Positions 4,062-38,999 of a stretch of DNA of 64,000 bases are shown here, piece by piece (position 1 is the stretch's first letter; each line of letters begins with the position of its first letter). Origin of the DNA: Myxococcota bacterium. GTDB lineage: Bacteria > Myxococcota_A > UBA9160 > SZUA-336. The DNA lies in assembly GCA_965247115.1 (NCBI GenBank), contig CBDFGR010000003.1, forward strand, positions 2,560,001 to 2,624,000, in the 5' to 3' direction. The translations under genes and the position numbers were made by a program. The notes beneath the pieces are model-generated. The model ran no database searches. It saw only the letters and a program-made list of their open reading frames with translations, and was not told the origin of the DNA.

Positions 4062-4453
4062 GCTTCCCCCTAGAGTCCGGTGAGCGCGCTATTCTATAAC
4101 AAACCGGGCGTTCCAGATGGGGGCCTCCTACGCCAATCTGCTTTCCCATCCGAACACGCCTGTCGTCCCCATCTAGGCACTTGGGACAGTACGGACCGCT
4201 CGATCAGGCTCAAGTCAACAGACGTTGTGATCCAGCGCCATGGCGCGCCCGGAGGTTCGTATTCTCCTCACGAAGGCGCGTGTTCTCGTCTGCGTGCTCT
4301 GCACCTGCCAGCGCGTCCTTGAAGTTTCAGAGGACCTTTGCTGTGTGCTTGATCGCATCGAGCCCACTCATCTCGTTTTGCCTTTCGCACACTCCTCGCA
4401 CACCCAACAGATGCTGGGGAGGAGAGGCGGCGCACCTAAGTGGTCGTAGTGCT

Positions 4454-4498
4454 TGGTGAGCGCGGCCGGGATCGAACCGGCGACCGGCGGATTAAGAG
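4454..4498 (-). pseudogene. 3' half of tRNA-Lys(CTT); attachment-site core
   Basis: Minus strand CTCTTAA-TCCGC-CGGTC-GCCGG TTCGATC CCGGC-CGCGCTC-A-CCA: anticodon loop, T-arm, acceptor 3' strand and CCA present; the 5' anticodon strand and D-arm are absent. Confidence 0.88.
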
Positions 4499-4579
4499 CG
4501 TGATCGATACTCCCGAGAGGGGCTCTACGCGGCGCTTAGAGCGTGACGATGGGGAATCAGGGTCCCCCAGAGACCCCCG

Positions 4580-4603
4580 AACGTCCACTTTAACGTCCAC
4601 TTT
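4580..4603. repeat. Tandem 12-bp direct repeat AACGTCCACTTT x2; putative integrase arm-type sites
   Basis: Exact copies at 4580-4591 and 4592-4603, ~80 bp inside the att core. Confidence 0.6.
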
Positions 4604-4660
4604 GGACGACAACGATGAGCAGCCAGCAGAGTCAGAGCCCGAGGGTCCATCGGAGGAGTG

Positions 4661-4756
4661 ATGGCCCGCTGCTACGCCCAGGATACTCAGCGCGGTCTCC
4701 CGATGGGTAAAAAGGAACTGATGACTGATTTAACAGAAGCAAGTTCAGGAGACTGA
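4661..4756 (+). CDS. 31-aa mini-ORF MARCYAQD...TDLTEASSGD
   Basis: GGAGGAG SD; TGATG overlap with the upstream frame; its stop abuts the GTG of the next gene. Confidence 0.4.
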   Translation: MARCYAQDTQRGLPMGKKELMTDLTEASSGD

Positions 4757-5749
4757 GTGCTGGTCCGTGGCGACGCTCGAGCGATTCCTCTGGCCGACCA
4801 GGTGGCCGACTGCGTCGTGACCAGCCCTCCGTACTGGGGCCTGCGGACCTACGAGCTCGACGGCCAGATCGGCCTCGAGGAGACGCCCGCTGAGTACCTC
4901 GAGGAGCTCCTGGCCGTGTTCCGGGAGGTACACCGCGTCCTGAAGCCAGAGGGGACGCTCTGGCTCAACCTGGGCGACTGCTACGTCTCTGCCCCGAGCA
5001 GTGGCCACGGCTGGGACAAGAGCACGCTGACGCAGCCGAAGAGCCGCGAGCGCAAGATCCAGCACGCGCAGAGGGACTCGCGGCTCGAGGGCCGGAAGCT
5101 CGAGGGCCTCAAGCCAAAGGACATGGTCGGGATGCCCTGGACGGTCGCGCTCGCGCTGCGCAACGAGGGTTGGTATCTGCGGCGGGACATCATCTGGCAC
5201 AAGCTATCGCCAATGCCCGAGGCAGTGAAAGATCGTCCAACGTCTGCGCACGAGTACCTGTTCCTGCTGGCCAAGTCTCGCCGCTACTACTACGACGCAG
5301 AGGCGATCAAAGAGCCAGCCGTCACCGCCGGCCGTGTGTCTCCCCGCCGGGTCAACCCAAAGGCCAAGGTTCCAGCTGGTTGGGACACGCGACCAGGTTC
5401 CCACCGTCACCTCACAGGGCGCTATCCGGCCCCAAAGCAGAACGCCGGAACTGCCGCGCGCATCGCCAACTCTGTCGAGACTCGAAGTGCGCGCACTGTC
5501 TGGAGCCTGGCCACAGAGCCCTACCACGGCGCGCACATGGCCGTCTTCCCCACCGAGCTCGCGAAGCGCTGCATCCTCGCGGGCTGTCCGGCCGGCGGGC
5601 TTGTGTTCGATCCATTCGTCGGATCGGGGACGACTGTGAAGGTCGCGATCGAGCTCGGCCGCCGAGGCCTCGGGATGGACCTCAAGCACGACTACCTGCA
5701 CGACCAGGCGCGGGAGCGGATCAAGACAACGGTGGGGATGGGGTGGTGA
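4757..5749 (+). CDS. Amino-DNA methyltransferase, beta class (N4-C/N6-A), phage type
   Basis: N-terminal TSPPY (motif IV), C-terminal DPFVGSGTT (motif I), HMAVFP. Confidence 0.93.
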   Translation: MLVRGDARAIPLADQVADCVVTSPPYWGLRTYELDGQIGLEETPAEYLEELLAVFREVHRVLKPEGTLWLNLGDCYVSAPSSGHGWDKSTLTQPKSRERKIQHAQRDSRLEGRKLEGLKPKDMVGMPWTVALALRNEGWYLRRDIIWHKLSPMPEAVKDRPTSAHEYLFLLAKSRRYYYDAEAIKEPAVTAGRVSPRRVNPKAKVPAGWDTRPGSHRHLTGRYPAPKQNAGTAARIANSVETRSARTVWSLATEPYHGAHMAVFPTELAKRCILAGCPAGGLVFDPFVGSGTTVKVAIELGRRGLGMDLKHDYLHDQARERIKTTVGMGW

Positions 5750-5783
5750 CGGTCATCCATCCCGGCGTTCCTGAGGAGGGAAA

Positions 5784-6107
5784 GTGAAGCGAACCTTGCT
5801 CGCCCTCGTGCTCGTCGCGTGCGGTCCGGATCTGCCAGAGCTTCCGGAGCCAGCACCCAAGAAGTTTGAGCTTACCAACGAGCGAAAGTGCGTCGCGATC
5901 CAGATGTGCGGGCGCCTCTGTGAGAAACGTAAGGGCATGGAGATGCTGGAGTTCCGTGGTGACATCGGCATCTCCTGGGCGTGTCACTGCAACGGCTACG
6001 GGCTGTTCCACTTCAAGGACCCCGAGCACATCATCTTTCCCGATGGCCTGACTGTCGCTGACTGTGCGCCGACGGGTGTCCACAGCGTGGGTCAGGAGGA
6101 GAAGTGA
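5784..6107 (+). CDS. Cys-rich putative lipoprotein
   Basis: Signal peptide with lipobox LVAC; strong SD GAGGAGGG. Confidence 0.7.
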   Translation: MKRTLLALVLVACGPDLPELPEPAPKKFELTNERKCVAIQMCGRLCEKRKGMEMLEFRGDIGISWACHCNGYGLFHFKDPEHIIFPDGLTVADCAPTGVHSVGQEEK

Positions 6108-6187
6108 TGACAGATCAGGAGCCCACACCGGAAGAGGCGCAATTGCAGACGGGCAGCCAACCCGTCGCAGGTGAGAGCGATGGCTGA
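6107..6187 (+). CDS. 26-aa mini-ORF MTDQEPTPEEAQLQTGSQPVAGESDG
   Basis: AGGAGG SD and TGATG coupling; spans two junction repeats. Confidence 0.4.
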   Translation: MTDQEPTPEEAQLQTGSQPVAGESDG

Positions 6188-6566
6188 GCCGCTGGATCTG
6201 GACGAGCTGGCAAAGGCTTACCGCTACTTCTGCCCCAAATGTGATTGCTATCACTGGAGCGGATGCGTCACCGACGAGATTATGGACAACCTTGTAGCCG
6301 AGTTGCAGAAGACGAGGCAGCTACTCCGCGCCGCCGCGGATCGACACTTGACCAACCAGCTCGCCGAGGCCCGCGAGGACACGGAGAGGCTGGACTGGCT
6401 GGAGCATGAGCACAGCTACGTCGGTGGCAATTATGGCGAACCTGCCTGGTCCTGCTGTCGTGACGAGCTTGGCAATCGTCAGCTTTTCCACGGTAGCAAC
6501 GCCCGCGAAGCCATCGACGCAGCAATGCAGGCGGGCATCCATCCCGTCGGTACGGAGGGAGATTGA
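6180..6566 (+). CDS. Phage hypothetical protein (CxxC; 'DTERLDWLE...REAIDAAM' motif)
   Basis: ORF track frame; motif typical of phage early proteins. Confidence 0.7.
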   Translation: MAEPLDLDELAKAYRYFCPKCDCYHWSGCVTDEIMDNLVAELQKTRQLLRAAADRHLTNQLAEAREDTERLDWLEHEHSYVGGNYGEPAWSCCRDELGNRQLFHGSNAREAIDAAMQAGIHPVGTEGD

Positions 6567-7708
6567 ACGGTGTGGCTCTATGTGCCGGGGTTGGAGGACT
6601 TGAGCTGGGACTCAAGCTTGCCCTCGGACCACGGTATCGCTGTGTGGGTTACTGCGAGCGGGACGCCTACGCAGCGGCCTGTCTCGTGGCGCGGATGGAA
6701 GACCAGGCCTTGGATCGCGCGCCTATCTGGGACGATCTTGCGACCTTCCCAAGCGGCCTCTTTAGCGGTGAGGTGGCTCTCATCTCTGCCGGTTTCCCAT
6801 GCCAGCCGTTCAGCGTGGCCGGGGACCAGCGGGGCGTAGACGATGACCGCTGGCTCTGGCCCGACATTGCCCGCATCGTTCGCGAGGTGGGACCCCGCTA
6901 CGTGTTCCTGGAGAACGTGTCAGGCCTCCTTGGTCACGGACTGGGACACATTCTCGGAGACCTGGCCGGGCTCGGGTTCGATGCGGAGTGGAGTGTGTTC
7001 AGTGCAGCCGGAAGCGGAGCACCGCACCTCAGGCGGCGCGTCTTCATCTTGGCCTACTCCCGGCGTGCCAAACGGGGGACGGACCATGAAGCCCGAGGAC
7101 ATTCTGGCGAAAGGAAAGACCGACAAGGGGAAGCGCCAAGTCGGGCTGGAAAATGCCGTCAGGATGTTCCCGACGCCCAGCGCCCAGACCTACGGGACGA
7201 ATCAGGGCGGCGGGATGGGCCGGGTGGGTCCGGTGCGCGAGAGCCTGGAGACGATGGCGCGGAACGGGAGATGGCCCACGCCGACCGCAGGCGACGCGAA
7301 GCAGAGCGGAGCGGCAGCGTACTCAACAGAGAGTGGGAGACACGCCGGAACGACCCTGACGGATGCGATCAGGATGTGGCCGACCCCGGCGGCGAGAGAC
7401 TGGAAGTCCGGTCGGTCAAATCTGATCGGGACGAATGCTCGACCGTTGAGCGAGGTGGTCTTGGTGTGGCCGACGCCCCGAGCAGCCGACAGCATCAAGG
7501 GGCGCAGGACCCCGGAGGGGGCGGCGAAGGAGCGGGCAAGAACGAACGGCCCGGATCTTCCGGCGATGGCTGGTGGCTCACTGAACCCGACATGGGTCGA
7601 GTGGCTGATGGGGTTCCCTCTCGGATGGACCGATTGCGCTGCCTCGGTAACGGAGTCGTACCGGCTGTGGCTGCGAGGGCATTCCGAGTGCTGAGCGCTC
7701 GTCTGTAA
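6563..7708 (+). CDS. C5-cytosine DNA methyltransferase, alpha polypeptide (motifs I-VIII and X)
   Basis: LCAGVGG (I), GFPCQPFS (IV), FLENV (VI), PHLRRRVF (VIII), RLRCLGNGVVP (X); no motif IX in this frame. Confidence 0.92.
   Translation: MNGVALCAGVGGLELGLKLALGPRYRCVGYCERDAYAAACLVARMEDQALDRAPIWDDLATFPSGLFSGEVALISAGFPCQPFSVAGDQRGVDDDRWLWPDIARIVREVGPRYVFLENVSGLLGHGLGHILGDLAGLGFDAEWSVFSAAGSGAPHLRRRVFILAYSRRAKRGTDHEARGHSGERKDRQGEAPSRAGKCRQDVPDAQRPDLRDESGRRDGPGGSGAREPGDDGAEREMAHADRRRREAERSGSVLNREWETRRNDPDGCDQDVADPGGERLEVRSVKSDRDECSTVERGGLGVADAPSSRQHQGAQDPGGGGEGAGKNERPGSSGDGWWLTEPDMGRVADGVPSRMDRLRCLGNGVVPAVAARAFRVLSARL
6843..7694 (+). CDS. Nested alternative-frame beta polypeptide of the C5-MTase (TRD-like repeats + motif IX)
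   Basis: Five (W/F)PTP repeats, then GSLNPTWVEWLMGFPLGWTD (motif IX-like); lies entirely within the alpha gene. Confidence 0.8.
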   Translation: MTAGSGPTLPASFARWDPATCSWRTCQASLVTDWDTFSETWPGSGSMRSGVCSVQPEAEHRTSGGASSSWPTPGVPNGGRTMKPEDILAKGKTDKGKRQVGLENAVRMFPTPSAQTYGTNQGGGMGRVGPVRESLETMARNGRWPTPTAGDAKQSGAAAYSTESGRHAGTTLTDAIRMWPTPAARDWKSGRSNLIGTNARPLSEVVLVWPTPRAADSIKGRRTPEGAAKERARTNGPDLPAMAGGSLNPTWVEWLMGFPLGWTDCAASVTESYRLWLRGHSEC

Positions 7709-7795
7709 AGGGTGCTGGAGCGGCTTCCCCGAGTATGCGTGCGGTCAGTGCCTGGAGGTGCCGACGGATAAGACACCCGTCAGTCAGGAGAAGCT

Positions 7796-7993
7796 ATAAG
7801 CAACGTTGTCAATCTAGATTCGCAGCGCCCGCACCTAGTGATCGACAGCTCCGGATTTGGTGGGTCAGTCCGCGTCTACCCGGTGGCCTACTTCGAGGAT
7901 CTCGTAGCAGGTAAGCCGGTTGAGCCCATCCCGGACGATGCTCTACGACAAATCATTGCTGAATGGCTGCTAAGCCGACAGGAATTCGAGTAA
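7796..7993 (+). pseudogene. Small phage gene whose start codon reads ATA: (M)SNVVNLDSQRPHLVID...LLSRQEFE
   Basis: Same leader as the gene at 8199 (CCGTCAGTCAGGAGAAGC) but ATA where ATG is expected; open 65-codon frame. Confidence 0.6.
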
Positions 7994-7995
7994 TA

Positions 7996-8202
7996 ATGGG
8001 ACTCTACGAGGATCTCGCACAGAGCCATCGTAGCTTACGGCGTGGCCAAGTCTGGTGCCGAACCTGCGGGGCTACCCGCAACGTCGATCCCGCAGAGTGT
8101 CTCGGCAAGGGTTGGCCGAAGTGTTGCGGCTACACAATGACGATCGACGCACCTGATGAGCGACCGACGGAGAAGACGACCGTCAGTCAGGAGAAGCCAT
8201 GA
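7996..8202 (+). CDS. Small zinc-ribbon-like phage protein
   Basis: VWCRTCG...GWPKCCGYTM; TAATAATG junction. Confidence 0.7.
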   Translation: MGLYEDLAQSHRSLRRGQVWCRTCGATRNVDPAECLGKGWPKCCGYTMTIDAPDERPTEKTTVSQEKP

Positions 8203-8507
8203 CGCCGGAGCGCAGGGCCGAACTCTACGACTCGATCAGCAATCCCTGTGCCGCCTGCGGATCGGGTGTCACGGCGTCCTGCTTGGAAACTAACGGTTGC
8301 GCGCCACGCGAGAAGCAGATTGGGCGCCTCGCAGACGAGTTCAGAGCTGCTGTCCTGGCCGAGCGAGAGGCGTGCGCGAAAGTGGTAGATCCAGGGTGGC
8401 ATGATTTCCACTCTTGTAACGAGAAGTGCTTCAGAGGGAGGACCATCGCGGCCGAGATCCGCAACCGACCGACGGATACAGACACCGCGGGTCAGCAGGG
8501 CGAGTGA
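8199..8507 (+). CDS. Phage hypothetical protein ('AEREACAKV...IAAEIRNR' motif)
   Basis: SD and ATGA overlap. Confidence 0.7.
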   Translation: MTPERRAELYDSISNPCAACGSGVTASCLETNGCAPREKQIGRLADEFRAAVLAEREACAKVVDPGWHDFHSCNEKCFRGRTIAAEIRNRPTDTDTAGQQGE

Positions 8508-8749
8508 GCCACCCCCCGAAGCGGCCTTGGGACTGGCAGTGGGACAATCGGCGGATCTGGATCGGCGCCAAGGGCACATGGTCTGACTATGCATGTGAGA
8601 TCAGGTTCCAAGACAAGCCCGATGCCGAGGCAAGCGCCGAGCACATCGTCCGCTGCGTGAACTCCCACGACGCTCTCGTAGAGATCGGAGGTAGCGAAGA
8701 CACGGAACTCATCGATACCGAAGAGATGGCGTTAGACAGCGCCGCATGA
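8504..8749 (+). CDS. Phage hypothetical protein, possibly truncated or fused at its C-terminus
   Basis: GTGA overlap; AEHIVRCVNSHDALVE motif followed by an unrelated acidic tail. Confidence 0.55.
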   Translation: MSHPPKRPWDWQWDNRRIWIGAKGTWSDYACEIRFQDKPDAEASAEHIVRCVNSHDALVEIGGSEDTELIDTEEMALDSAA

Positions 8750-8767
8750 CTATAGTAATCATCGTGC

Positions 8768-11338
8768 GTGTTGATGACCGCTGAACGGACGAACGTGACC
8801 GGCGACGCGCGGTTAGAGCATCGCCGACAAAGAAACGGCCGCGCCAATGCGCGGACGAAGGATTGGGAGCACACCGCCTTGGCCGCTTTGCTCTGCACTA
8901 TCCTGGCCTGTGCTAGCGGAGGAGGAGGAGGAAGTGGGCTGCCGTCGATGGATCCGTCACCACCGGATCCACCGGACCCGCCGAACCTGGAAGATCTGGC
9001 GCAGGACTTCTCCCAGGTTTCGGAATTCCGGAACCAGCCCGCTCTGAGCCGGATCAAGGCCAACTATGCCTATGCGCGCGGCGCCACGGGCGCGGGCGTA
9101 ACGGTCGGGGTCATCGACAGTGGTATCGACAGCACCCACCTGGAATTCGAAGGCCCGGGTAAGCTGCACCCGGATTCTGGCTTCTACGATGACTATGACT
9201 CTGGGACGAAGACTCTTCTTACTATCAGCGAACCCACAAGAAGCGAAATTATTCACGGAACCGTGGTGAGCGGCGTTCTCGCGGCGAACCGAAATCCCGC
9301 ACTGACAGACGATGTAAGCATGCACGGTGTCGCGTTCGATGCCCAACTGCTCTCAGTAGGGATCTCGCTCGGGTCCAGCGGTGGAACCTACATCCCCATC
9401 GATCTCAGCAACCCTGGCGATGACCCCTTGCTTGATGAGTTCCCTGCGGCGATTTTTCGCGAAGTGAATTCGCGCGCCGCCACGGTCAATCTCAGCATTG
9501 GGTTCCCTGGCGGGATCGAGCGCTATAGCGAAAGAGAGATCCGCGACGCCTTTCCCCGCTCGATCGAGGCCGTGGCCCAAGCGACGATCCCGGCCGCCGA
9601 GCGGACCATCTACGTATGGGCGGCCGGCAATGCTCGCAACCAACCGCATGCCGACGGGACTCTCGAGCTCGCCGAGTCAGTCGAGATCCTTGCCGGATTA
9701 CCCCACCGGATCCGCGAGCTGCGGGGGCACTCCCTCGCCGTCGTCGCAGTGGACACAGAGACCGGCGTGATCGCGGACTTCTCGAACCGTTGCGGCATCG
9801 CCTATAGCTTCTGCCTGGCCGCACCCGGGACGGACATCAGAGGCCCTTTCCCTGACATCGACGATACCGGAGATGTTTTCTACGCGGACCGTAGCGGCAC
9901 CTCGCTGGCGGCTCCACTGGTGACAGGCGCCGTCGCGCTGCTGACTCAGCGCTACCGAGATCAGCTCGGTGCCTCCGAGATCGTGGCTCGTCTGCTCGAA
10001 ACGGCGAACGATACCGGGATCTACGCCGACCTTGACATATATGGGCAGGGACTGCTCGACCTCGACGCCGCCACGCGGCCACGCGGCCAGACCCGGCTGC
10101 TCACGAGCGGAGCGCTCGCCGGTCCGGCCACCGCCGAAGAGCTCAGCTCCCTGGCGAGTAGCCCTGCGTTTGGCGATGCGCTCGAGCGCGGACTCGCCAA
10201 CCACGAGATCGCCGCCTTCGACGCGCTCGACGCCCCTTTCTTTCGGCCGCTGGGCACGTATCTCAAGACTCCCGCCGCTGCGCGCACCCGTGTCGAGGAT
10301 CGCCTCTGGACGCTTGGCATCGATGCGCGCGGTCCGGCGTGGAATCGGCCCGGATCCCCAGAGTTGCGAATGCGCGTCGATCGCGTACCGATTGGCTACG
10401 GAGACTCTGCTCGACGGAGACGCCTGGGGGCGCTGGGCTCACCGAAGGCCACCGAGGACCGGCTTGGTGCACTCTCTTACTCCCGCCAGGTCGGCGTCGG
10501 CCGGGCGTTCCTGGGACTGCGCAGCCACCCCGGCTGGAGCTTCGGTCTGTACGCGGCGGGTGTAGTCGAGCCCGGGACCTTCAGCGACGATGGCGTATTC
10601 GCCAGCCCTTTCCTTGCGTTGGCGCGCGACGGAGGCGTCGCGGGACTAGAGCTACCGCTGATCGCGGGAGCAATCCGAGTAGCCGCCTTCCGCGGCGCAG
10701 CGCAGTGGGGTGAGCGCCGCGATCCGGACGATGGCCGCAGTGCCGGGGCCATGCTGGAGTACCGGCTTCCGGAGCGTTCCGGCTCTGGCGCGACCCTCCA
10801 GGCTGGCTGGCTGCAAGAGTCCGAGCGCCTGATGGGTAGCCGCTCGAGGGGCGCGTTCGGTGCCCTGCGCGGCCGCACTGCGTTCGCGGGTGTGTCTGCT
10901 CATGTCCAGCTGGGCGCGCGCTGGACCGTGTTCGCCACTGCGCATGCCGGCTGGACCCGCCCGGAGATCTCCGGGCGGGGATTGCTTCGCCGCTTGTCCC
11001 CGCTCTGGACGAGCTCGTTCGGGCTGGGGATCACCGGCCGGAGCGTCTGGGACCGGCGCGACCGCCTGTCGCTGCGACTTTCGCAGCCGCTGCGCGTGGA
11101 ATCGGGTCAGCTCTCGCTGCGCTGGGCCACGGGTCGTACGCGGGACCGACGAGTGCGTACCGATGAGCTAGCGCTGAGTCTGGAGCCCTCGGCGCGCCAA
11201 ATCGACTTGGAACTCGTCTATGCGCGCCCGTGGGCCGGAGGGTCGGCCCACTTCGCCGCAGTCGCCGTGCACGATCCAGACCACACCCGCGACGCGGCCG
11301 AGCTCGCGCTGCTCTTCCGGTACGGCTGCAAGTTCTGA
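8768..11338 (+). CDS. S8 subtilisin-like serine peptidase with C-terminal beta-barrel-like region (autotransporter-like)
   Basis: VIDSG (Asp), HGT (His), AAGN, GTSLAAP (Ser); terminal Phe; start position uncertain. Confidence 0.88.
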   Translation: MLMTAERTNVTGDARLEHRRQRNGRANARTKDWEHTALAALLCTILACASGGGGGSGLPSMDPSPPDPPDPPNLEDLAQDFSQVSEFRNQPALSRIKANYAYARGATGAGVTVGVIDSGIDSTHLEFEGPGKLHPDSGFYDDYDSGTKTLLTISEPTRSEIIHGTVVSGVLAANRNPALTDDVSMHGVAFDAQLLSVGISLGSSGGTYIPIDLSNPGDDPLLDEFPAAIFREVNSRAATVNLSIGFPGGIERYSEREIRDAFPRSIEAVAQATIPAAERTIYVWAAGNARNQPHADGTLELAESVEILAGLPHRIRELRGHSLAVVAVDTETGVIADFSNRCGIAYSFCLAAPGTDIRGPFPDIDDTGDVFYADRSGTSLAAPLVTGAVALLTQRYRDQLGASEIVARLLETANDTGIYADLDIYGQGLLDLDAATRPRGQTRLLTSGALAGPATAEELSSLASSPAFGDALERGLANHEIAAFDALDAPFFRPLGTYLKTPAAARTRVEDRLWTLGIDARGPAWNRPGSPELRMRVDRVPIGYGDSARRRRLGALGSPKATEDRLGALSYSRQVGVGRAFLGLRSHPGWSFGLYAAGVVEPGTFSDDGVFASPFLALARDGGVAGLELPLIAGAIRVAAFRGAAQWGERRDPDDGRSAGAMLEYRLPERSGSGATLQAGWLQESERLMGSRSRGAFGALRGRTAFAGVSAHVQLGARWTVFATAHAGWTRPEISGRGLLRRLSPLWTSSFGLGITGRSVWDRRDRLSLRLSQPLRVESGQLSLRWATGRTRDRRVRTDELALSLEPSARQIDLELVYARPWAGGSAHFAAVAVHDPDHTRDAAELALLFRYGCKF

Positions 11339-11402
11339 AACTAAGTCAGATCGGTCGTAAGATCCGAGTGGTAGGTTGAAGTCGGACCGACTGGAGGAAG
11401 AG

Positions 11403-12701
11403 ATGATGAAAGCGGCAGTGTTCCTACTAATTCTGATACTTACCACAATGGATTCATCGGCAGAGGAGACTCCCACGCTCCTAAGCAACCCAGGTGACTA
11501 CAAGTCTGACAGTCACTTCCATCTGCTTGATTTCTTGCAAAACGGAGAGTTCCTGAATACGGATGGCAAGTTTCCGGGTACAGAGTGGGGCCTGACCACG
11601 AGCGGTCGTTATTCGACGCTTCCCTTTGGGGAGAGAGGGAGAAGAATTGAAGCGCTGCTTCGGGGAATGGAAGCGGCGAGAGTGGACCACGTCATGGTGT
11701 CGGGAATGCCATTTGTCAAGAAGTGGTCGGAGAATGAGCCCTTCATGAGACCAAAGTATTACCTCGACAGCAGCTCAACAGTAAAGCGTGCACGCGATAC
11801 CGACATCACCATTGCCCACGCCATTCTCGACTATCAGAGAAAACATGCTGACGACCCTGCCCAGCTCTCAGAACTCCGAAAGATACATCCGTTCATCACG
11901 GGTTTTGATGGAACCGATCTTGGTGCGGTCGATCTCATCGTGAAACGGATCAAGGAGTTCCCTGGAATCTGGCAAGGGATAGGCGAGGTGATGTCGCGCC
12001 ATGATGATCTCACGAGTCTGACTCTCGGGGAAAGACCTCGTGCCGACCACCCGGCGCTCGTGCGTGTCTGCCGGTTCGCAGGAAAACACTTTCTTCCGGT
12101 AAGCATTCATCACAACATCGCGCCGATCTCGAGAAATCCGACTGAAATCCAGGCACCACTCTATCTCGACGAGCTGGTTCGACTGTTTCGTCACTGTCGC
12201 TGGAAAGATGGTGACCGAGATTACACAACTCGGTTTATCTGGTGCCATGCGGGCATCAGCAGACGAATCAACATTGAGAATCTCCCGTTCTGGATAGAAG
12301 CGGTCCTCAAAGACTCGGGAGATCAAGTTTCCATCGATCTGTCGTGGGTTGTCTTAGCCGACTACATATATGAGGATCTGGACCGGTGGGTCCGATTGAT
12401 AAAGCAGTACCCAGATCGATTCATGATCGGATCGGACGCAGTTGGTGGTGCCAGTAAGCTCAAACAAGAGCTCAGCAACTTTGACCCGCTGTTGGCGAAG
12501 TTGCCCTCGGATATCAGAGTCAAAGTCGCTCATGCCAACTTCGCCAATCTGATGCAAGAAATGGCAGCAATGAGGGCGAAGGCAGGGCTGGGAGAAGAGG
12601 GGATCGTATTGGACTACGAATACGAGTTTCCGGAGTATGGCAATACTGGACGGCTGTCCAAATCGGAGTCTTTTACTCGTTCCAGAGAGGAACTCGAATA
12701 G
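11403..12701 (+). CDS. Secreted amidohydrolase-family (TIM-barrel) protein
   Basis: Signal peptide; DSHFH, GIGE, IHHN, WCHAG, MIGSD metal-ligand motifs. Confidence 0.82.
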   Translation: MMKAAVFLLILILTTMDSSAEETPTLLSNPGDYKSDSHFHLLDFLQNGEFLNTDGKFPGTEWGLTTSGRYSTLPFGERGRRIEALLRGMEAARVDHVMVSGMPFVKKWSENEPFMRPKYYLDSSSTVKRARDTDITIAHAILDYQRKHADDPAQLSELRKIHPFITGFDGTDLGAVDLIVKRIKEFPGIWQGIGEVMSRHDDLTSLTLGERPRADHPALVRVCRFAGKHFLPVSIHHNIAPISRNPTEIQAPLYLDELVRLFRHCRWKDGDRDYTTRFIWCHAGISRRINIENLPFWIEAVLKDSGDQVSIDLSWVVLADYIYEDLDRWVRLIKQYPDRFMIGSDAVGGASKLKQELSNFDPLLAKLPSDIRVKVAHANFANLMQEMAAMRAKAGLGEEGIVLDYEYEFPEYGNTGRLSKSESFTRSREELE

Positions 12702-12843
12702 GATGACTAGGTTCTGATGCCATTCACAAACCTTGTGCTAGTAGACCAATCCCCCTTTGAGATGCTCTCCTGACCAGAAAGTCCGCGTTGATAGGCAAGC
12801 TTGTGCCCTATTCGGCGCTGTCAGCTGTGTGGAGGAAAAGAGC

Positions 12844-13808
12844 ATGAGATGCGTTGTCTCATTTTTGACTTGCGTGATCGCAATAAGTCCATTCTCCAGC
12901 AGTCTGGCGCGGGCTGGTTCGGGCTTGTATCTCAGCAGCGAGTTGGGAGCCAACTTCGCCCCGTCCGTGGATACCACCGGCAGCAGCAACGACCGGGCCA
13001 GCGTATGCGATGAGTTCATCAATCCAATGTTCTCCACAGTCACGCAAACTCCGGGATACGCCAGCTACAACTGTACGGGCCCCAATCGCGGTGCGACTGG
13101 AGACTGGAAGAACAAGTTCGACCGTGCCGAGGGCATTCTAGCCGGAGCGGCGCTGGGGTATCGCCTGAGCGATAAATATCCGGATAGTCTTCTGGGCCGG
13201 TTCCGTCTTGAGTTGGAGTATTTCTACCGGAACTCGGAGTATGATGAGACTTCCGACATCCCTGGTGCAGCGGGCGAGAGCGGCGACAAGCTCGTCCAGG
13301 AAATTCGGACAGCGACGGACCGGATAGATAGCATCACCTCTCACAACCTATTCGGGAACCTGTACTTCGACTTTGTGAACAGCAGCCGTTTTACCCCTTA
13401 CGTCGGTTTTGGGGTCGGCGTCGGCTTCACCGACATGGACTATGGAAGTGTGTGGACGCGGAACTCCGATGTAAACAGGATCACCACGGAGGAAGGTCTG
13501 CCCAACGCGGCCGAGATTCGCCAGAATCTGGCCGGAACATCCAGCTTCGCGCACACCGAACTCAGCGACACGCTCTTCGGCTATCAGGTGCTGTTCGGGG
13601 TCGATTATGCGCTGACGGAGTCAATATCTCTTGGCGTTAAGGGCCGCTGGATCCACTTTGATTCCTTCAGGGGCCGTATTGTCTGGGATCCCTGCGGAGT
13701 CACGGACCCAACTTGCGGAGCGACGGATCGGAACCAGTGTCGGGTAGGATCAAGACCAACGATATCGAGATGTTCGGGGTCAGCGTGAATCTCAAGTACC
13801 ACTTCTAG
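12844..13808 (+). pseudogene. Outer-membrane beta-barrel protein (opacity/Msp2-like) with a 1-nt frameshift at ~13690
   Basis: GNLYFDF...FTPYVGFGVG; adding one C to CCC at 13690-13692 gives WDPLRSHGPNLR...FGVSVNLKYHF*, a canonical barrel C-terminus. Confidence 0.8.
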
Positions 13809-13994
13809 GCAGATCCGTGTCCGACCGTTTCGGCTGGATCTCATTTCTCCTTGAATATCGAACGCCGAACTGAGGGGGGGGTCAGTTTCCACGATGCGAC
13901 GGAGGCCCTCTACCGGACGGTGCACGGGAGAACCATCGACCTCTGCGCGGACCACACGCAAACCAAAGTGGGCATGCATCCACCCTGTTTGTAC

Positions 13995-16661
13995 TCAGAA
14001 CTCGGCGGAGATGCGTACGTACCAGAAGGCGCCGTTGTAGTCCCAGGGCGTGCTCTCGGGGTGGAGATTGCCCTGTCCCAGTGTCTCGCCGACGGGAGCC
14101 CTGGGGACCTGGTCAAAGATGTTCTGCATGCCCACGTTCAAGCGATAGTGGTCATAGAAAGCGTAGCCGATCTCGGCATCGGCAATCCACTCGCCGTCGA
14201 AGGAGTCGAGATAGTCGTCACCAGAACTCGACGCGCAGCTGTTGCTTTGGAACCGACAGGCCTTCCAGTCGTCGAAGTAACTGAGCCGCAGCAGGGCGCT
14301 CCATTGGCCGATCCGGTGACGACCGATGAGTACTAGGCGGTGCTCGGGATTCAGGTCCTCGATCTCTACCTCGCGCCGGCGCGTGAGCAAGTTTACGCTG
14401 AGCGGCTGGTCGAGCAGGGCCTTGCCGGGAAACGAAATGACCTGTCGCGGCGGCGAGAACTCGTCGAGCTCCGTCTTCGTCCAGTTATAGGCCAGGCTGA
14501 CATCCGTTTTGTTGTCGCTGTCCCAGTCGTGCGACCAGGTAAGCACCAGGTCGATGCCGCGCGTGCGGGTGTCGAAGTCATTGGCGAAAAACTTAATCTC
14601 CTTGAGCTCGCCCACTCCCGCGAAAACGTCCTGATCTTTGATCAGACGCGCGATCTCGTCGGTGATCGAGATATTCCCGGTCAGCGCGATGCGGTCTTCG
14701 ATGAGAATGTCGAAGTAGTCGAGCGTCAGATTCAGATCCTCGGCGAGCTCGATCACGACGCCAAACGAGAAGCTGAAGGCCTCCTCCTCTGTGAGCTCCT
14801 CGCCGCCCAGGGCCGACGCGACCGGATCCGTGGGTGGGAGCTGGCCCGACTCGATCAGACCGCCATCGCCGGAGAACGTCGTGGTCAGGAGGCGGAGATT
14901 CGCCTGCCCCGGCGAAGGCGCGCGGAAGCCCGTGCTGGCCGTCGAGCGTAGGGAGATCCGGTCCGCGACCCGCCACAGCGCGGAGAGCTTGCCCTTGAGG
15001 GTGTCGCCGAAGTCGTCGTAGAAATCTTCGTAGCGCACGGCCACGCCGAGCAGAAGCGTGTCGATCACGTCCGCTTCCAGATCCAGGTAGAGCGCGTAGT
15101 TCGGCCGGTCCCACGCGCCTGCGAACTTCGGGTTCAGGCCCTGATAGCCGTTGGAGCCGACGCTGAAACCTTCCGCGCTGTATGCACCCGGCTCGTATGA
15201 CTTCGGGTCTCCGGGCTTGGTTTCAAAGGTCTCCTCGCGCCATTCTGCGCCCCAGGCGATGTTAAGCGGAGACGTAAGGAAGCCCAGCTCCAGCGGGTAC
15301 GCGAACTCGAGGTTGAGCGAGACTTCCGTCTGGAGGTAGTCCCGCGGGCGGAACGAGGTCGGCGTGTCTGGCCCCAGCGAGGCGTTGATCGTGTTGTACA
15401 GGAAGAACTCAATGTTACTGTGGCCATAGCTCACACTGGCATCCCAGCGCAGTCCGCTGGCGAACTCGCCTCGCACGCCCGCGACCCCGCTCCAGTCGGT
15501 GATATCCGCCCCAAAGCGCGGCGTGAAGCCGCCGGGGAAATACTCGTTGAACAGGAAGCACCGGCCCGAGTTGGCGTCCACGAAACTCTCTACGGTGGCA
15601 AAATCGGCCGCCAACGGCGGCAGCCCGGCGGCGCAATCGACGGCGTCGGTCGGATCGAGATCAGCGACCACACGCTCCGTGCCGCTGCGAAACACGCCGC
15701 TACGCGCGCTGGAGGTGCCCGGAGCTCGGAAGAAGAAGCCCCCCTCATTCGTACGCTCGGCGTAACCGCCAAAGGCGTACGCCTCAACTCCACTACCGAG
15801 CTCGATGCCGGAGTTGACAAAGAAGCTCCACGCGTTTTCTACCTCGGGGCTGCCCCAGATCTGTGCCAGGCTCGCGATGGGATAGCCCCGTCGAATCAGC
15901 TCCGCGGCATTGGCGCGCGTTCCACTGCGTACGGTCGGCTCGGCGTCGCGGTACTCCATGCTCAGGTTAAGAAAGCCGGCTTGGGTCAATGGCAGACCAA
16001 TGTTGCCAGCAATCTGCAGCGTCTCGCCGTCGTTGCGCTGGAGAAACTCGCCGTAGCGCGCCTCAAGGGAGATGCCCTCATTGGCGTCCTTCAGCCTGTA
16101 GTTAAGCACACCGGCGATGGCGTCGGAGCCGTACTGTGCCGAGGCTCCATCCCGGAGCAGCTCGATCTGCTCGATGGCGATGGTCGGGATCACGCTCAGG
16201 TCCGGTCCCTGCGAACCCGTGTTGAGCGATGTGCCGAGCAACGCGATCACGCCAGAGCGATGGCGGCGCTTGCCGTTGACGAGCAGGAGCGTGTTATCCG
16301 GCGGCAGGCCTCGCAGCGTGGCGGGGCGTACCAACGTCGCCTCGTCGTCGATCCCGTGCCGTTGCACATTGTACGATGGAGACAGAGTGCGCAAGATGTC
16401 ATCCATGTCGGTGCCTGCCTGCGCACGCAGGTCCTCCGAGCCCAGCACGTCGATCGGCGCGGGCGACGCCAGCACCGAGCGGGGGGCCCGGCGCGAGCCC
16501 ACTACCACGATGGCCTCGATCTTCTCGGGAGGCTCCGGCGCATCGATCGAGTCCTCCTCCGCCTGTGCCTCAGCCATGGGCAACCCGCCGAGTGCGAACA
16601 CCAAAACGAGCGTGCCCAAGCCCCCCCTGGTAGCGCGCAGCGTTTCTGGCGCTTCTCGCAT
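13995..16661 (-). CDS. TonB-dependent receptor
   Basis: IVVVGSRR TonB-box region; plug motifs LRGL..LLLVNGKRRH and GASAQYGSDAIAGVLN; terminal F; SD before ATG 16661. Confidence 0.93.
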   Translation of the reverse strand: MREAPETLRATRGGLGTLVLVFALGGLPMAEAQAEEDSIDAPEPPEKIEAIVVVGSRRAPRSVLASPAPIDVLGSEDLRAQAGTDMDDILRTLSPSYNVQRHGIDDEATLVRPATLRGLPPDNTLLLVNGKRRHRSGVIALLGTSLNTGSQGPDLSVIPTIAIEQIELLRDGASAQYGSDAIAGVLNYRLKDANEGISLEARYGEFLQRNDGETLQIAGNIGLPLTQAGFLNLSMEYRDAEPTVRSGTRANAAELIRRGYPIASLAQIWGSPEVENAWSFFVNSGIELGSGVEAYAFGGYAERTNEGGFFFRAPGTSSARSGVFRSGTERVVADLDPTDAVDCAAGLPPLAADFATVESFVDANSGRCFLFNEYFPGGFTPRFGADITDWSGVAGVRGEFASGLRWDASVSYGHSNIEFFLYNTINASLGPDTPTSFRPRDYLQTEVSLNLEFAYPLELGFLTSPLNIAWGAEWREETFETKPGDPKSYEPGAYSAEGFSVGSNGYQGLNPKFAGAWDRPNYALYLDLEADVIDTLLLGVAVRYEDFYDDFGDTLKGKLSALWRVADRISLRSTASTGFRAPSPGQANLRLLTTTFSGDGGLIESGQLPPTDPVASALGGEELTEEEAFSFSFGVVIELAEDLNLTLDYFDILIEDRIALTGNISITDEIARLIKDQDVFAGVGELKEIKFFANDFDTRTRGIDLVLTWSHDWDSDNKTDVSLAYNWTKTELDEFSPPRQVISFPGKALLDQPLSVNLLTRRREVEIEDLNPEHRLVLIGRHRIGQWSALLRLSYFDDWKACRFQSNSCASSSGDDYLDSFDGEWIADAEIGYAFYDHYRLNVGMQNIFDQVPRAPVGETLGQGNLHPESTPWDYNGAFWYVRISAEF

Positions 16662-17025
16662 TCCTCTTCCCTCAGAGAGCGGCTTTGCCGGATAGTCCGT
16701 TGACGGCAGGGTACTGTAACGGACACGTAACGCACGACTCCCAAAAGCCGGAGAAACTCCGGAGGCGTCGAAGGGATCGGGCAAGCTCCTTTGTGCTGCC
16801 GTTGTCGCGGGCTACAGGCTTGCGCGCACCGGTATGGGGCGGAAGGCGGCCGCGGGCCTCTCGCTCGTGTCTGCACGGCCCCTGCCACGTGGCCGGCAGG
16901 AACCGTCGCGTCGAGGGTCCGTCCGACCCTACCCGCATGGACGGGGTCGATGGCGCGGGCGGCGTTTCCGTGGTATTGCTGGGGCAACCGCGGAATACCG
17001 CTCCCCATTTGCCAGGAGGGTCGCA

Positions 17026-17637
17026 ATGCCCGTGACCAACTTGTCGGATTTGCGCACCTTGTACCCGCCGCCGAAGGCGCAGGCCGGGCTCAAGGTCTTG
17101 GACTACCTGGACGTCCACTGCAGGGACTTTATCGCGCTCTCCCCGTTCTACGTAATCAGCTCTGCCCGAGCGGACGGCCGGGCCGACGCCTCGCCCCGGG
17201 GAGACCCGCCGGGATTGCTGGCGACGGTGTTGGACCCGAAGACCCTGCTTTTGCCGGATCGGCCGGGAAACCGTCAGGTTGACACGATGCAGAACCTGTT
17301 GGAGCGGCCCTATGTGGGGTTGCTGTTTTTCGTTCCAGGAATGACGGAAACCTTGCGCGTCAACGGCAAGGCGGAAATAGCAACCGATCCGGAATTGCTG
17401 GCGCCGTTGGCGGTGAGAGATAGAGCGCCGGTTTCCGGCCTGATAGTCACGGTAGAGGAGGCCTTCCTCCATTGTGCCAAGGCCCTGATCCGGGCTCGCC
17501 TTTGGGATGTTGACAGTCAGATCAACCGCTCGAACTATCCTACCTACGGCCAGGTGCTGGCGGAGCAGATCGCTGGATCCGACGGCGCCAAGATCGACGC
17601 CGGGGAAGCCGCGAGCTGTCGGGACGAACTCTATTAA
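17026..17637 (+). CDS. Pyridoxamine 5'-phosphate oxidase-like FMN-binding protein (MSMEG_1061-like)
   Basis: DASPRGDPPG, PDRPGNRQVD, ETLRVNG, HCAKALIRARLW. Confidence 0.88.
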   Translation: MPVTNLSDLRTLYPPPKAQAGLKVLDYLDVHCRDFIALSPFYVISSARADGRADASPRGDPPGLLATVLDPKTLLLPDRPGNRQVDTMQNLLERPYVGLLFFVPGMTETLRVNGKAEIATDPELLAPLAVRDRAPVSGLIVTVEEAFLHCAKALIRARLWDVDSQINRSNYPTYGQVLAEQIAGSDGAKIDAGEAASCRDELY

Positions 17638-17781
17638 CGGGCTCTCGGTGAGGGCACCCGCGGAGCGTCCGGTGGATGGATCGGTTTCGAATTGCACTGG
17701 GTCGGCCGTGGAGAATTCGGAGCTTGACGCCGCCCAAGCTCCCGATGGTAGGATGACGACCTCAAACAACGGGAGGACGAC

Positions 17782-18177
17782 ATGGACCTGAGCCAGTCTG
17801 CGTTTTCTGTCAGCCACGCTGCCGACGCAAAGGTAGAGAACTTCGATCCGGACGGCATCTTCAAGATACGCGACTTGGGCGTCAAAGGGGTCACAGACGG
17901 GAATGTGGAGGCCCGCATTCTATCGGCGGCTCAACCGTGTCCCGGCAACCTTGGGCGGCACCGACACGATGTTGAACTCCAGGTGTTTTATGTGCTCAAG
18001 GGGTGGGCCAAGTTCCATTTCGAAGGCACCGGTGAGGTTGAGGTGACGGCAGGCTCCTGCGTGAACATGCCCGCAGGCATCGTCCACGACTTGCTGGAGC
18101 ACACCGAGGATTTTGAGTTCCTCGAGATCATCGCGCCATCCCAGCACGACACGGAGTGGATAAAGGCGGTGGAGTAG
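17782..18177 (+). CDS. Cupin domain protein
   Basis: HRH...QVFYVLKG...GSCVNMPAGIVH. Confidence 0.88.
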   Translation: MDLSQSAFSVSHAADAKVENFDPDGIFKIRDLGVKGVTDGNVEARILSAAQPCPGNLGRHRHDVELQVFYVLKGWAKFHFEGTGEVEVTAGSCVNMPAGIVHDLLEHTEDFEFLEIIAPSQHDTEWIKAVE

Positions 18178-18302
18178 ACCGACCCCTCGAATAAGGGGCC
18201 AGCCTTTCCGGGTCCCCCGGGGAGGGGCCTCGCGCCCGGATGGCATTCTAGTGCCTTCCGGTTTACCACCTCGCCAGATTCTGAGTGTCCTGGTCGTCGA
18301 TT

Positions 18303-36172: not shown

Positions 36173-37462
36173 TCAGCCTCCCTTCACCACACCCGTACGG
36201 AACGACTGCGAGTCGTTCCATCGGGCGTAGATCCCCTGAGTGTTGATCTCGGCCTCGGGCTCGTCGTCTCGAGCTCGGTGATGCCCGTGGACCTCCGGCT
36301 CGGACTCGCCTCCGCGGTCTTCGAACAGCGTCTTCCCGACCTGCTCGGCCGTGAGTTCGGTATCGAGAAACTCACCGAACCTCTCCGGGTAGCCCGCGAG
36401 GTCGCAGGCCATCCGGATCGCGGATGCACGCTCTTTCGCGGAGGCCTCCGCCGCTGCGCGACCTTCCTTCCGCGCATCTTCGATGCTGATCACCGTTGCC
36501 TGTTGCTCGCCTGCAGGGGCCGGCACCTGTGGGCCCCCTTCAGGCTGCTTCTGATCGGTCATTCTGCCGTCCCCTCTGACGGGCGTGAGCCCGCTGATGG
36601 TGAGCGCGGGTCGCTTGGAGACCATCTCCTTGAACTCCGCGAACACCTGATCAAATGTCGACTCGCCGTCGGCGAATCCCACGTCGGCGCCGTTGGCACC
36701 GCCGAAGTACATTGCCACCTCGGTGTCGCGCACCGCCTTCGGGGCCATGTCGCGATTGCGTGCAACGGCCGCGACGAAGATCTCTCGAAGCCGATCGACC
36801 TCCGCCTGAACCGACGCGCGCGCATCGCTCGTGAGCGGCTTCGAGTCGCTCAGGTCCGCCTTGTGCGCGCCCGAGGAGATCTCCGTGATCGTCACTCCCA
36901 GCCGCTCGTCCATCTTGCTGAACTCGACGTGGACAGCGATCACACCGACACTTCCGACGCCCCCAGTCCGAGTGACAAGGATCCGCTCCGCCGAACTCGC
37001 GAGCGCGTAGGCTGCGGAGAAGGCATCGTCGTTCGCGATGGCCCAGATGGGTTTGATGCTGCGCGCCTCAAAGATCTCGTCGGCCAGGTCGAAGGTCCCA
37101 GCGACCTGCCCGCCTGGGCTGGCGACATCGAGCAGGATCCCCTTGACGTCGCCGCGCCCGATCGCCTGCTTGAGCTTCTCCTTCAGGCGGCTGAGCCTGA
37201 ATCCGAAGAGCGCGCCCTGGATCGGTACGACCGCAATGCCCTCCCGGATCTCGAGCGACCCTGGCTCGCTCTCGAAGAGGAAGGAGAAGGCCTTGGGGTT
37301 GAATCCCGTGGCGCTGCGCAGCGTCGCAACGAGCGGCTCCGTCCGCGATCGCTCCATGAGCAGCGGCACGTTGCAGAGTCGGGAGGCGACTTCGGGCAGG
37401 TGGATCTCCGCAACCGACGCCTCGGCCCCGGTCGTGCCTTCACTCTGGATCGTCTCTTCCAT
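36173..37462 (-). CDS. S49 capsid maturation protease (gpC-like), with a nested scaffold (Nu3-like) likely starting at 36562
   Basis: DVASPGG, SAAYALAS, GSVGV, GAHK; internal SD + ATG (MTDQKQP). Confidence 0.9.
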   Translation of the reverse strand: MEETIQSEGTTGAEASVAEIHLPEVASRLCNVPLLMERSRTEPLVATLRSATGFNPKAFSFLFESEPGSLEIREGIAVVPIQGALFGFRLSRLKEKLKQAIGRGDVKGILLDVASPGGQVAGTFDLADEIFEARSIKPIWAIANDDAFSAAYALASSAERILVTRTGGVGSVGVIAVHVEFSKMDERLGVTITEISSGAHKADLSDSKPLTSDARASVQAEVDRLREIFVAAVARNRDMAPKAVRDTEVAMYFGGANGADVGFADGESTFDQVFAEFKEMVSKRPALTISGLTPVRGDGRMTDQKQPEGGPQVPAPAGEQQATVISIEDARKEGRAAAEASAKERASAIRMACDLAGYPERFGEFLDTELTAEQVGKTLFEDRGGESEPEVHGHHRARDDEPEAEINTQGIYARWNDSQSFRTGVVKGG

Positions 37463-38999
37463 GCCTCTCTCCTGGCAGCAGCCGCAGAGCCGTGGAGCCG
37501 CCCTCGCCCTCGTTGCCGCCCTCGCCGGCCCCGACCGCACCGGCCCGCGCTTGGCCATCCAGGTCACCGGACGGGTCGCTATCCAATACGAGACCGAGCT
37601 CGCGGGCCCGCTCGTTGTCCGCCGCGATCTGGCGGTCGAGCTCCTCAACGTCGAGTCCCAGCTTCGCGGCCTCGAGGCTCCGGCTCGACAGGCCAGCCCG
37701 GATCCGCCGGACCGCAGCCTTGATGTCCTTCTCGGGCTCCACGTACTCCCAGCCCGGCGGCTGCCACTGTGCGCGCAGCAGCCGACCCATGTTCGCGCGC
37801 TCCTCCGCTGGGACCTGAACGCGCCCTGAGAGCACCGCGGCCGGCAACCACCAGCGCCAGACGCGTCGACAGAGCTGGAAGACCATGGCGTTGCGCTGGA
37901 TCTGCTCCATGCGGCGGCGCACCTCGAGCAACCCAGCTCGGATGCTCGAGAAGTTCACCTTCGAGAGGTCGCCCGAGAGCTGCTCGTACGTGATGCCTAG
38001 GCCAATCGCGACCGATTGGAGCTGCACACGCATGAAGGCTTCGTACGACCCCCCCACATCGGCCGGCTCGGCGAACTTGATCTCCTCGCCAGGTCCGAGT
38101 TCTTGCACTGTCGCCGGCTCCAGTGACGCGAGCGGGATGTTCTCATCGTCCTCCCCTTGAGAGCCCGTACCCAAGGGGTCTGAATCGGAGGCCGGTTTGG
38201 TCACGAACGCCGCAAACATCGCGGCGATCTTCTTGCGCACGACCTCCGCGTCGTCGTACTGATCGAGCTCGTAGAGCTTGACCAGCACAGAGGCGAATCC
38301 CGGGATCTCTCGAAGCTGACCAGCTCACGTCACACGGAAGAGATGGATCACGCGGTCGGCGGGAACGATGACCTTGCGTTGCTGCCGGAGGTTGAACTCG
38401 CCCGGATGCTCGCGCCAGAAGTGATAGGCCTGCCGCCGACCGACCGCGTCGAACTCGATCCCAGCCTGAATCCGGCGACCGCCCGGAAGCGGGCGGAACA
38501 TCGCCGAGTCGAGGTGATCCCCCTCGAGCATCTGAAGCTGCATCGGGACGGACAAGCCATCCGAGCGTCGGCGTGGACGCTGTCGAATGAAGACCTCACC
38601 GGCCTCCTTCATCTCCCGACAAGCAAGCGCCTGCAGCCCGTAGAAGTCGCAGCACCCATCTGCGTCCGCTTCCTCAATCCACTCTGACCAGGCATCGAGG
38701 ATCTGAGCCCGGAGCTCCTCGCTTCCCGTGACGGGCTTGGGACGGATGCCGTTTCCGACGACATTCGCGACGAACGACTCGAGCGCAGCTTCCGCCCAAG
38801 GCGACGATCGCACCGCGTCGCGCGACCGAGCCCGAAGTGTCTCGAGCTGGCCGACGATCAGGGCGTTGACGTGCGCAGTGCTCGGTGCCCAGCCCTTCGC
38901 CCGACGACCGAGACCGGCCGCGGGCCAACCCGTCATGGTCGCTTTTGGCTTCGACTTCGGGCTGGCCTTCGAACCGAAAAGGCGTTGCCAGAGTTCCAT
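37440..38999 (-). pseudogene. Lambda-family portal protein interrupted by an in-frame TGA at 38325-38327
   Basis: Both track ORFs are in the same frame: IHLFRVT*AGQLREIPGFASVLVKL; LRARSRD, YEQLSGDLSKVNFSSIRAG. Confidence 0.92.

Follow-up and report, generated by a model that had tools for sequence, protein, structure and literature searches.

Palindromic gene-junction sites as probable preferred exchange points in the accessory-gene cassette arrays of a temperate-phage clan in a Myxococcota bacterium

The window analyzed here is a 64,000-nucleotide stretch of DNA from a Myxococcota bacterium (assembly GCA_965247115.1, contig CBDFGR010000003.1, forward strand, positions 2,560,001 to 2,624,000), the genome being called G000 and its contigs C1, C2 and C3 in the coordinates below. 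Near its beginning lies an array of small phage genes whose junctions are marked by seven copies of one palindromic site. Seven such arrays occur in the genome, namely W (window), A on C1, B, C, D and E on C2, and F on C3, and together they hold 37 sites in 26 junction types. Comparison of these arrays, as far as past events can be read from DNA, demonstrates exchange inside the site, retention of the site centre, reordering of cassettes and a fixed reading frame. The sites are very probably preferred exchange points, and this holds alike if they act as core sites or through shared homology. The cassette-junction system is real and specific to one phage clan, and it offers unusually clear comparative evidence for linker-mediated modular shuffling. 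As to the mechanism, our favored reading, to which we give a probability of roughly 45%, is that the sites are core-type sites of a tyrosine recombinase.

The site is an imperfect palindrome of about 27 bp, consisting of GACCGACGGG, 7 nt and CCCGTCGGTC, followed by AGGAG and by a stop that overlaps the next start. Its geometry is about 10+7+10 bp. The three positions of CGG are kept in 19, 19 and 16 of 20 left halves, and those of CCG in 18, 18 and 19 of 19 right halves. The 7-nt centres (48% GC) fall into about nine classes, with a mean between-class identity of 31%, compared with 60% and 65% for the arms. The original prediction had described a GACGG-N9-CCGTC palindrome at seven gene junctions. 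The palindrome is confirmed, but the arms are about 10 bp rather than 5 nt, and the centre is 7 nt rather than 9. All seven copies lie where they had been placed (the G of GACGG is at 5748, 6071, 6148, 6530, 7763, 8166 and 8471). As also claimed, copies 1 and 4 have the spacer CATCCATC in common, copies 5 and 6 have 18 bases in common, starts follow 13–17 nt past the CCGTC arm (the start after copy 5 being ATA), and unrelated proteins have similar C-termini. The very degenerate eighth copy suspected near 4720 is instead a gene start of 11 codons (4721–4756, + strand), fused to the ribosome-binding site (RBS) of the first methyltransferase gene; this region matches other arrays only from +24. 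The site marks seven of the nine junctions in 4757–8749, but those at 7697–7708 and 7993/7996 are without one.

The exact ten-base pattern is, as had been estimated, rarer by chance than seen: four copies occur in the window against 0.33 expected, and none of 100 shuffles reaches four. Three of the four are in the array and the fourth is at 54762. With up to one mismatch, the bare pattern is not clearly enriched in the window (14 versus 8.7 expected; 6/100 shuffles), and it undersells the motif. Leave-one-out position weight matrices (PWMs) give each copy an expectation of 0.004–0.022 per 4.3 kb, with copies in related prophages counted as background. In the genome scan that had been proposed as a check, a spacer-blind PWM trained on the array sites gave 28 matches of at least 20 bits, all of them array sites, and no copy above 13 bits in the early or late region of the window.

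These scans bear on the suggestion, one of the original options, that the palindrome is an operator or a start-associated site resembling the extended start-associated sequence (ESAS) of mycobacteriophages, by which a dimeric phage or host regulator would silence or tune the array, the swaps being a by-product of the repeats. The dyad symmetry and the AT-richer centre just 5' of the RBSs are reminiscent of the Cluster K ESAS and the Cluster EG and O repeats (PMC3203893, PMC7302621, PMC4351075; statements on the papers cited in this text apply to the parts of them that were available). In addition, the prophages encode several helix-turn-helix (HTH) proteins. However, the matches of at least 20 bits are confined to the arrays, and no promoter-like or terminator-like element was found at any site, the 1 promoter-like and 4 terminator-like matches in 4300–8900 being at chance level. 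Moreover, class-specific centres and a fixed frame would be superfluous for an operator. We consider this role improbable.

The possibility that the site encodes a peptide tag was rejected. Its codons are fixed at the wobble position: 14 of 20 left halves have ACG, and 10 of 11 Gly codons are GGT, compared with 11% usage. Site 1, moreover, is kept though non-coding. The fixed wobble bases indicate that the constraint acts on the nucleic acid. The third original option placed an RNA hairpin in the early transcript, where it would serve processing or govern coupled translation. The majority of sites are able to fold (mean z of −1.6, with 9 of 26 below −2), and the ribosome translating the upstream gene would run across a hairpin in this position, immediately 5' of the RBS. 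Nevertheless, among 156 inner arm pairs the deviations comprise 49 true mismatches versus 2 G-U pairs, with a single compensatory change; several sites barely fold, and no credible Rfam match was obtained. A hairpin function therefore appears very improbable.

The relation of the site to the reading frame is fixed. In 23 of the 26 junction types, the site ends at a stop −5 to +3 nt from the next start, and in 17 of those 23 the stop and start overlap as NTGA or ATAA. Sixteen of 17 assignable cassette genes use this frame with no stop ahead of the site, a count that leaves out three upstream units that are not assignable. The exception is MTaseA, the sole assignable cassette with its stop inside the left arm. 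In array F, one copy stops just ahead of the site and another is frameshifted. Homologs from elsewhere are without the site-encoded tail, which is present in 0/119 and 0/34 non-self proteins among the matches listed; the former count is drawn from 120 listed of 344 matches. We propose that a cassette consists of a right arm, RBS, start, open reading frame (ORF) without its own stop, and left arm. The right half of the following cassette would then give the last 11–14 codons, the stop and the stop/start overlap, so that a swap would leave both genes complete and translationally coupled. Two homologs of the ORF at 7996 (P0032 and P0067) have tails resembling read-through of repeats that we take to be of attC type.

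Evidence for exchange at the sites comes from the ends of homology blocks between arrays, a check that the original prediction had proposed. Of 42 distinct block ends, 18 fall within −5 to +25 of a site, compared with 8.0% expected. The binomial p value of 9e-10 is overstated because the events are not independent. In 14 of these 18 ends, both partners are in register. Hybrid sites combine the left half from the upstream cassette with the right half from the downstream cassette. Where two sites follow the same cassette, their identity reaches to +5, +16, +16, +16, +18 and +24, with three older differences to the left in one of these pairs. Where two sites precede the same cassette, identity sets in at −2 in three pairs, at +6 in another three and at +12 in two, the last two reflecting a single event. 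Placing the crossover at +5/+6, where the centre begins on its left, suits 13 of 14 pairwise comparisons or their shared event; for the one event that it does not suit (site 7100 of array F, two comparisons), the right edge fits. Each clean hybrid can be accommodated by one edge of the centre or the other, although the intervals are wide and homology fits too. Of 12 cases in which a cassette side has at least two partners, 10 keep the centre. The order of cassettes changes as well: MTaseA stands ahead of the MADLRE and MNEPLN cassettes in arrays A, B and F, and behind them in C.

Joints of this kind also appear in other assemblies. Short-read contigs, probably from the source sample, break at sites 1, 3 and 4 and hold the joint of array A; misassembly was rejected on these grounds. 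MTaseA (4755–5749) has other flanks in contigs of two other studies. On a separate ENA contig of 18,035 bp, a read-through protein joins the left half of array F to the right half of array B with a TGGTACA centre, and the same contig codes for a form of the 8199 ORF that ends in another tail. The hybrids, the excess of breakpoints at sites and the changed gene orders bear out the idea, put forward as the first original option, of crossover points that shuffle promoterless genes and supply the RBS. Its site-specific recombinase is a candidate agent, and an integron integrase was not found.

Conserved symmetric arms around a free, partner-matched 7-nt centre are the layout of tyrosine-recombinase core sites. 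We propose that the phages of the clan carry, at their post-att end, an array of gene cassettes joined at these crossover sites, with the arms as putative binding half-sites and the 7-nt centre as an overlap that would need to match. A matching centre would act as a barcode choosing which sites recombine. In tRNA att sites of such integrases, the 7-bp overlap is the anticodon loop (PMC8371274), and pdif sites recombine where their spacers match (PMC13141974). The likeliest enzymes would be the clan's tRNA anticodon-loop integrases, acting at low frequency on core-only look-alikes. Among the 52 anticodon arms of the host, an arm model puts that of tRNA-Lys(UUU) on top with 18.3 bits (true sites score 8–24), and its right arm agrees with the site consensus at 10/10 positions. 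The arm of tRNA-Lys(CUU), the att of the window array, ranks 4th of 52. Relatives of the Lys-type integrase adjoin tRNA-Lys(UUU) in 2/25 relative loci (G081 and G177). In its boldest form, the proposal would be a phage-borne integron-like system without its own enzyme. Here, tRNA anticodon-loop integrases would act on att-core mimics in the 3' ends of accessory genes, 7-bp overlaps would be address codes, and stop-less cassettes would keep every product a complete, translationally coupled operon. We regard this full scheme as unlikely.

Several points weigh against the core-site reading. The attB-side tRNA-Lys arms score 18.3 and 11.0 bits, whereas the phage-side left arms at the tRNA-Lys(UUU) att junctions of three relatives fit poorly or moderately (4.7, −4.1 and 12.4 bits). 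Elsewhere, relatives of the Lys-type integrase adjoin His, Leu, Met, Gly, Arg, Thr and selenocysteine (SeC) tRNAs. tRNA T-arms reach 13.5 bits, so the tRNA likeness, which was found after the fact, is partly generic. The arms are degenerate (49/156 inner pairs mismatch), and no dedicated recombinase was identified among the genes of the elements, which include several different integrases. As many as 24 of the 42 block ends lie off-site, many of them cutting genes short, and two events (arrays B and C) deleted the centre imprecisely through microhomology. No excised circle was seen among the assembled contigs searched. Finally, the comparisons all draw on this genome plus a single further contig and lack independence.

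Exchange through short homology accounts for the hybrids nearly as well as a site-specific recombinase does, and we consider it almost as likely. In this explanation, the shared 30–40-bp junctions would be linkers recombined by annealing through Sak4 and its single-stranded DNA-binding protein (SSB) or RecT, or by replication slippage. The longest identity would win, favoring equal centres, and selection would keep the open frame and the coupled stop/start; the palindrome would be a relic or serve something else. In the cases with both parents visible, the CATCCAT pair of array A has 13 bp in common and sites 5 and 6 have 8+18 bp, and annealing or slippage over 8–27 shared bases accounts for both the hybrids and the retention of centres. 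Deletions through microhomology outside the sites are frequent in these arrays. Candidate enzymes are present, since Sak4+DUF669 SSB modules (three full and two partial copies) and, in other prophages of the clan, RecE/RecT-like genes occur. Sak4 recombineering tolerates 12% divergence (PMC5928155), and recombination between repeats has been proposed for the promoter(early) stem-loop (PeSL) elements of T4-type phages (PMC2839356) and for Cluster O palindromes (PMC4351075). Conversely, homology does not explain why the centres have diverged to random level while the symmetric arms persist. The crossover between sites 5 and 6, moreover, used the 8-bp tract to the left of the centre and not the 18-bp tract to its right.

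The array of the window can be followed cassette by cassette, all on the + strand. It is preceded by the 3' half of a tRNA-Lys(CTT) on the − strand (4454–4498), a prophage att junction that starts exactly at the 7-nt anticodon loop and has 45-bp identity to the tRNA-Lys at G000 C3:2634150-2634194. The first cassette is MTaseA (4757–5749), an N6/N4-type DNA methyltransferase (phrog_67, E 8e-62) also found in other arrays. Site 1 (5744–5770, centre CATCCAT) has the same left half as C2:239886 and another right half. The next cassette (5784–6107) encodes a 107-residue lipoprotein-like ORF, with a lipobox read from the sequence and no PHROG or Pfam match, and reads through site 2 (6067–6093, TGTCCAC). 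A 77-bp mini cassette of 26 codons (6107–6187) follows and reads through site 3 (6144–6170, CAGCCAA), where homology to arrays A and B stops at +16. The 128-residue ORF at 6180–6566 (weak phrog_13871) reads through site 4 (6526–6552, CATCCAT), where homology to array A begins at +6.

MTaseC (6563–7708; phrog_363 and phrog_1008) is a C5-type methyltransferase cassette whose 3' end is fused off-site to a remnant of a zinc-finger gene; the MTaseC of array A reads through a CATCCAT site. A second long frame (6843–7694) overlaps it, and each of the two matches methyltransferase PHROGs. The second frame carries WPTP repeats, and a 114-bp deletion in array A lies between them. The 3' remnant of the CxxC zinc-finger ORF (7697–7799; 94% to C3:1182865-1182966) reads through site 5 (7759–7785, TAAGACA). 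It is followed by a small ORF (7796–7993) with an ATA start overlapping the upstream stop, and by a cassette for a widespread 68-residue phage CxxC protein (7996–8202), to whose 344 homologs the 0/119 tail count given above refers. At site 6 (8162–8188, GAAGACG), array F combines the left half of site 5 with the remainder (centre and right half) of site 6. The 102-residue ORF at 8199–8507, whose variant with another tail is on the separate contig, reads through site 7 (8467–8493, TACAGAC). The last phage ORF of the array (8504–8749, 81 residues) is apparently cut off by an insert and has a 49-bp patch in common with a cassette of arrays C, D and F.

The insert is host-like (8750–18250, borders approximate, no strand assigned), with genes for a subtilase, a probable TonB receptor, a PNPOx protein and a cupin, as well as an amidohydrolase-like ORF, and it parts the array from the late genes. 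In prophage F, a similar block replaces late genes. Further downstream, on the + strand, are a recombination module (49568–51603) with a Sak4-like annealase, a DUF669 SSB and a Cas4-domain exonuclease (phrog_124, phrog_6015, phrog_1990; PF13479, PF05037), and a tyrosine integrase gene (52202–53458; PF00589, phrog_1) adjoining tRNA-His (53504–53580).

The original prediction treated the array as a separate remnant. In related prophages of this genome, however, an array of the same type comes after the att junction, and a few kb separate it from the end of late genes that match the window from 18694 onward. This layout implies that the array is the post-att end of a large prophage, split off by the host-like insert of ~9.5 kb. 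The accompanying remark that no dedicated recombinase is present in the remnant was misleading, given that this large prophage encodes Sak4, SSB, a Cas4-like exonuclease and a tyrosine integrase. The two prophage ends in the window are mismatched, with a tRNA-Lys att (4454–4498) at one end and a His-type integrase with tRNA-His at the other (45713–53580 region). A Lys-type integrase gene at C3:2634191-2635459 and a full tRNA-Lys lie 10 kb beyond the window, inverted and adjoining a 98.6% copy of window 45713–48459. The mismatch points to an inversion between two prophages; inversion through their shared early region (with the partner at G000 C3:2634119-2643177) would restore a Lys-att prophage, in which case the Lys-type integrase would be this array's own.

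Other observations concern the sites and prophages elsewhere in the genome. Extra site copies occur at C3:2391373, at C2:133789 and ahead of a toxin-antitoxin module in array A. At C3:2391373-2391750, a lone cassette stands between two sites, after a fused three-codon gene start, and adjoins an unrelated integrase gene. The Gp49/HTH toxin-antitoxin module of array A (near C1:38130) has its own promoter and starts at the right edge of a CAGCCAA-class site. The first site of array D (C2:762012) is 84 nt past tRNA-SeC and has a T-loop-like centre, TTCTAAT. A 17-bit site-like sequence at C1:33513 (+) has the opposite orientation and lies near the late end of prophage A. Lys-type prophage att junctions at the C2:235392, C2:279331, C3:5939 and C1:1364 loci have the changed overlap CTCCGAA for CTCTTAA, and prophage C seems to be placed in a secondary site with GCGGA/TCCG arms. 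An integrase match inside prophage F is weak, with no convincing ORF, and was rejected. A portal-like gene is present as two ORFs (37440–38288 and 38325–38999), suggesting a break (recorded for window positions 37440–38999 and 50506–51603). A 12-bp tandem repeat in an early gene (window 48593–48655) is much expanded in two related prophages (C3:804800-805250 and C3:1214500-1215450), and an 88-bp repeat present well over 100 times in the genome has one of its copies at C3:2387768-2387855.

Within the IMG/VR, GTDB and class-genome scans, which depend on exact or near-exact matches and are blind to diverged motifs, arrays with the motif were found in this genome and among the proteins of the ENA contig, and not elsewhere. 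The IMG/VR motif scans gave 0, 52 (single) and 0 loci, and none of the 52 held an array; the GTDB scan gave 50 single matches and no array. Of 200 genomes of the class, 26 had matches, never clustered, and a reversed control pattern also matched sporadically. Nineteen loci rescanned from these class-genome matches held no arrays. A DNA search of 40 relatives returned only chance matches of 30–50 bp, and there was no such array among the IMG/VR loci listed around MTaseC relatives (17) and around the 68-residue ORF (4). The clan marker gene was present in G000 only among 401 genomes of the phylum, had no match in IMG/VR and gave 4 weak short matches in JGI metagenomes. A literature search, mainly of freely accessible main texts, returned no description of the motif or of stop-less barcoded cassettes.

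Single-gene swaps that do not break coupled early operons are usually ascribed to illegitimate recombination or to hypothetical linkers. In the present arrays such linkers can be resolved to the base, parents and hybrids occurring side by side within a single genome, and with them come the stop codon, the RBS and the coupling. The linker model becomes directly testable with few candidate enzymes (Sak4+SSB, RecT and the integrases). If it is true that an integrase acts, phage integrases would have a second job as cassette shufflers with a programmable 7-bp specificity. The site-encoded tails also explain how unrelated small phage proteins can end alike.

The system fails the defining tests for integrons, pdif modules, PeSLs and ESAS. 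Integron arrays (attC/IntI) consist of cassettes with one gene each, lacking promoters and all oriented alike, that are shuffled at junction sites, and the cassettes of the window resemble them in all these respects. An attC site has RYYYAAC/GTTRRRY cores and at least 57 bp, whereas the 27-bp GC-rich dyad is much shorter and without the GTT/AAC core. The integron integrase IntI was not found in the element or the genome (TIGR02249 gave at best 78 bits versus a cut-off of 265, the best matches being XerC/D-like genes).

The PeSL cassettes of T4-type phages, interpreted by the Botstein-Campbell linker model (PMC2839356), are similar in that repeats at the junctions of an accessory region are exchange points for small genes, with expression kept. 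As here, breakpoints of gene gain, loss and replacement fall in the element. However, PeSLs are described in the available part of that paper as intergenic promoter and terminator units. The sites of the window have neither, showing no sigma70-like promoter with terminator stem-loop; they lie within the upstream ORF and provide its stop, and their centres differ by class.

Inverted repeats close to the 5' side of accessory-gene starts are found in the ESAS and start-associated sequence (SAS) of Cluster K, the 18-bp repeats of Cluster EG and the 17-bp repeats of Cluster O (PMC3203893, PMC7302621, PMC4351075), and the sites likewise lie just 5' of accessory-gene RBSs. Deletions between repeats have been noted for Cluster O (PMC4351075). 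The ESAS has 17-bp arms, 4–13-bp variable spacers and a 13-bp conserved SAS, and stays with a gene family; barcode classes and stop-less read-through are not described in the available parts of these papers. The present sites differ in their arms of ~10 bp, fixed spacing and variable RBS.

The pdif modules of Acinetobacter plasmids (PMC13141974) also have short two-arm sites between modules, which exchange through identical or near-identical spacers and are reordered. Retention of the centre in 10/12 partner changes corresponds to such matching-spacer exchange. The pdif site is built as 11+6+11 with distinct XerC and XerD arms, whereas the present sites have a 7-nt centre and near-symmetric GC-rich arms unlike those of the pdif table in the available part of that paper, and lie in one orientation within coding sequence. 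A scan of this genome for the dif-like ATAA-N6-TTATG gave nothing.

The last comparison is with the anticodon-centred att cores of lambda-type tyrosine integrases (PMC8371274). Unlike these, the sites have centres that are not anticodon loops, are not followed by a tRNA 3' half and occur in many copies internal to an operon, and their activity is that of a candidate. They are alike in having inverted arms around a 7-bp centre, the arrangement of a core site with its overlap. Moreover, the right arm of the site equals the arm of the host tRNA-Lys(UUU), and the array of the window begins at a tRNA-Lys att.

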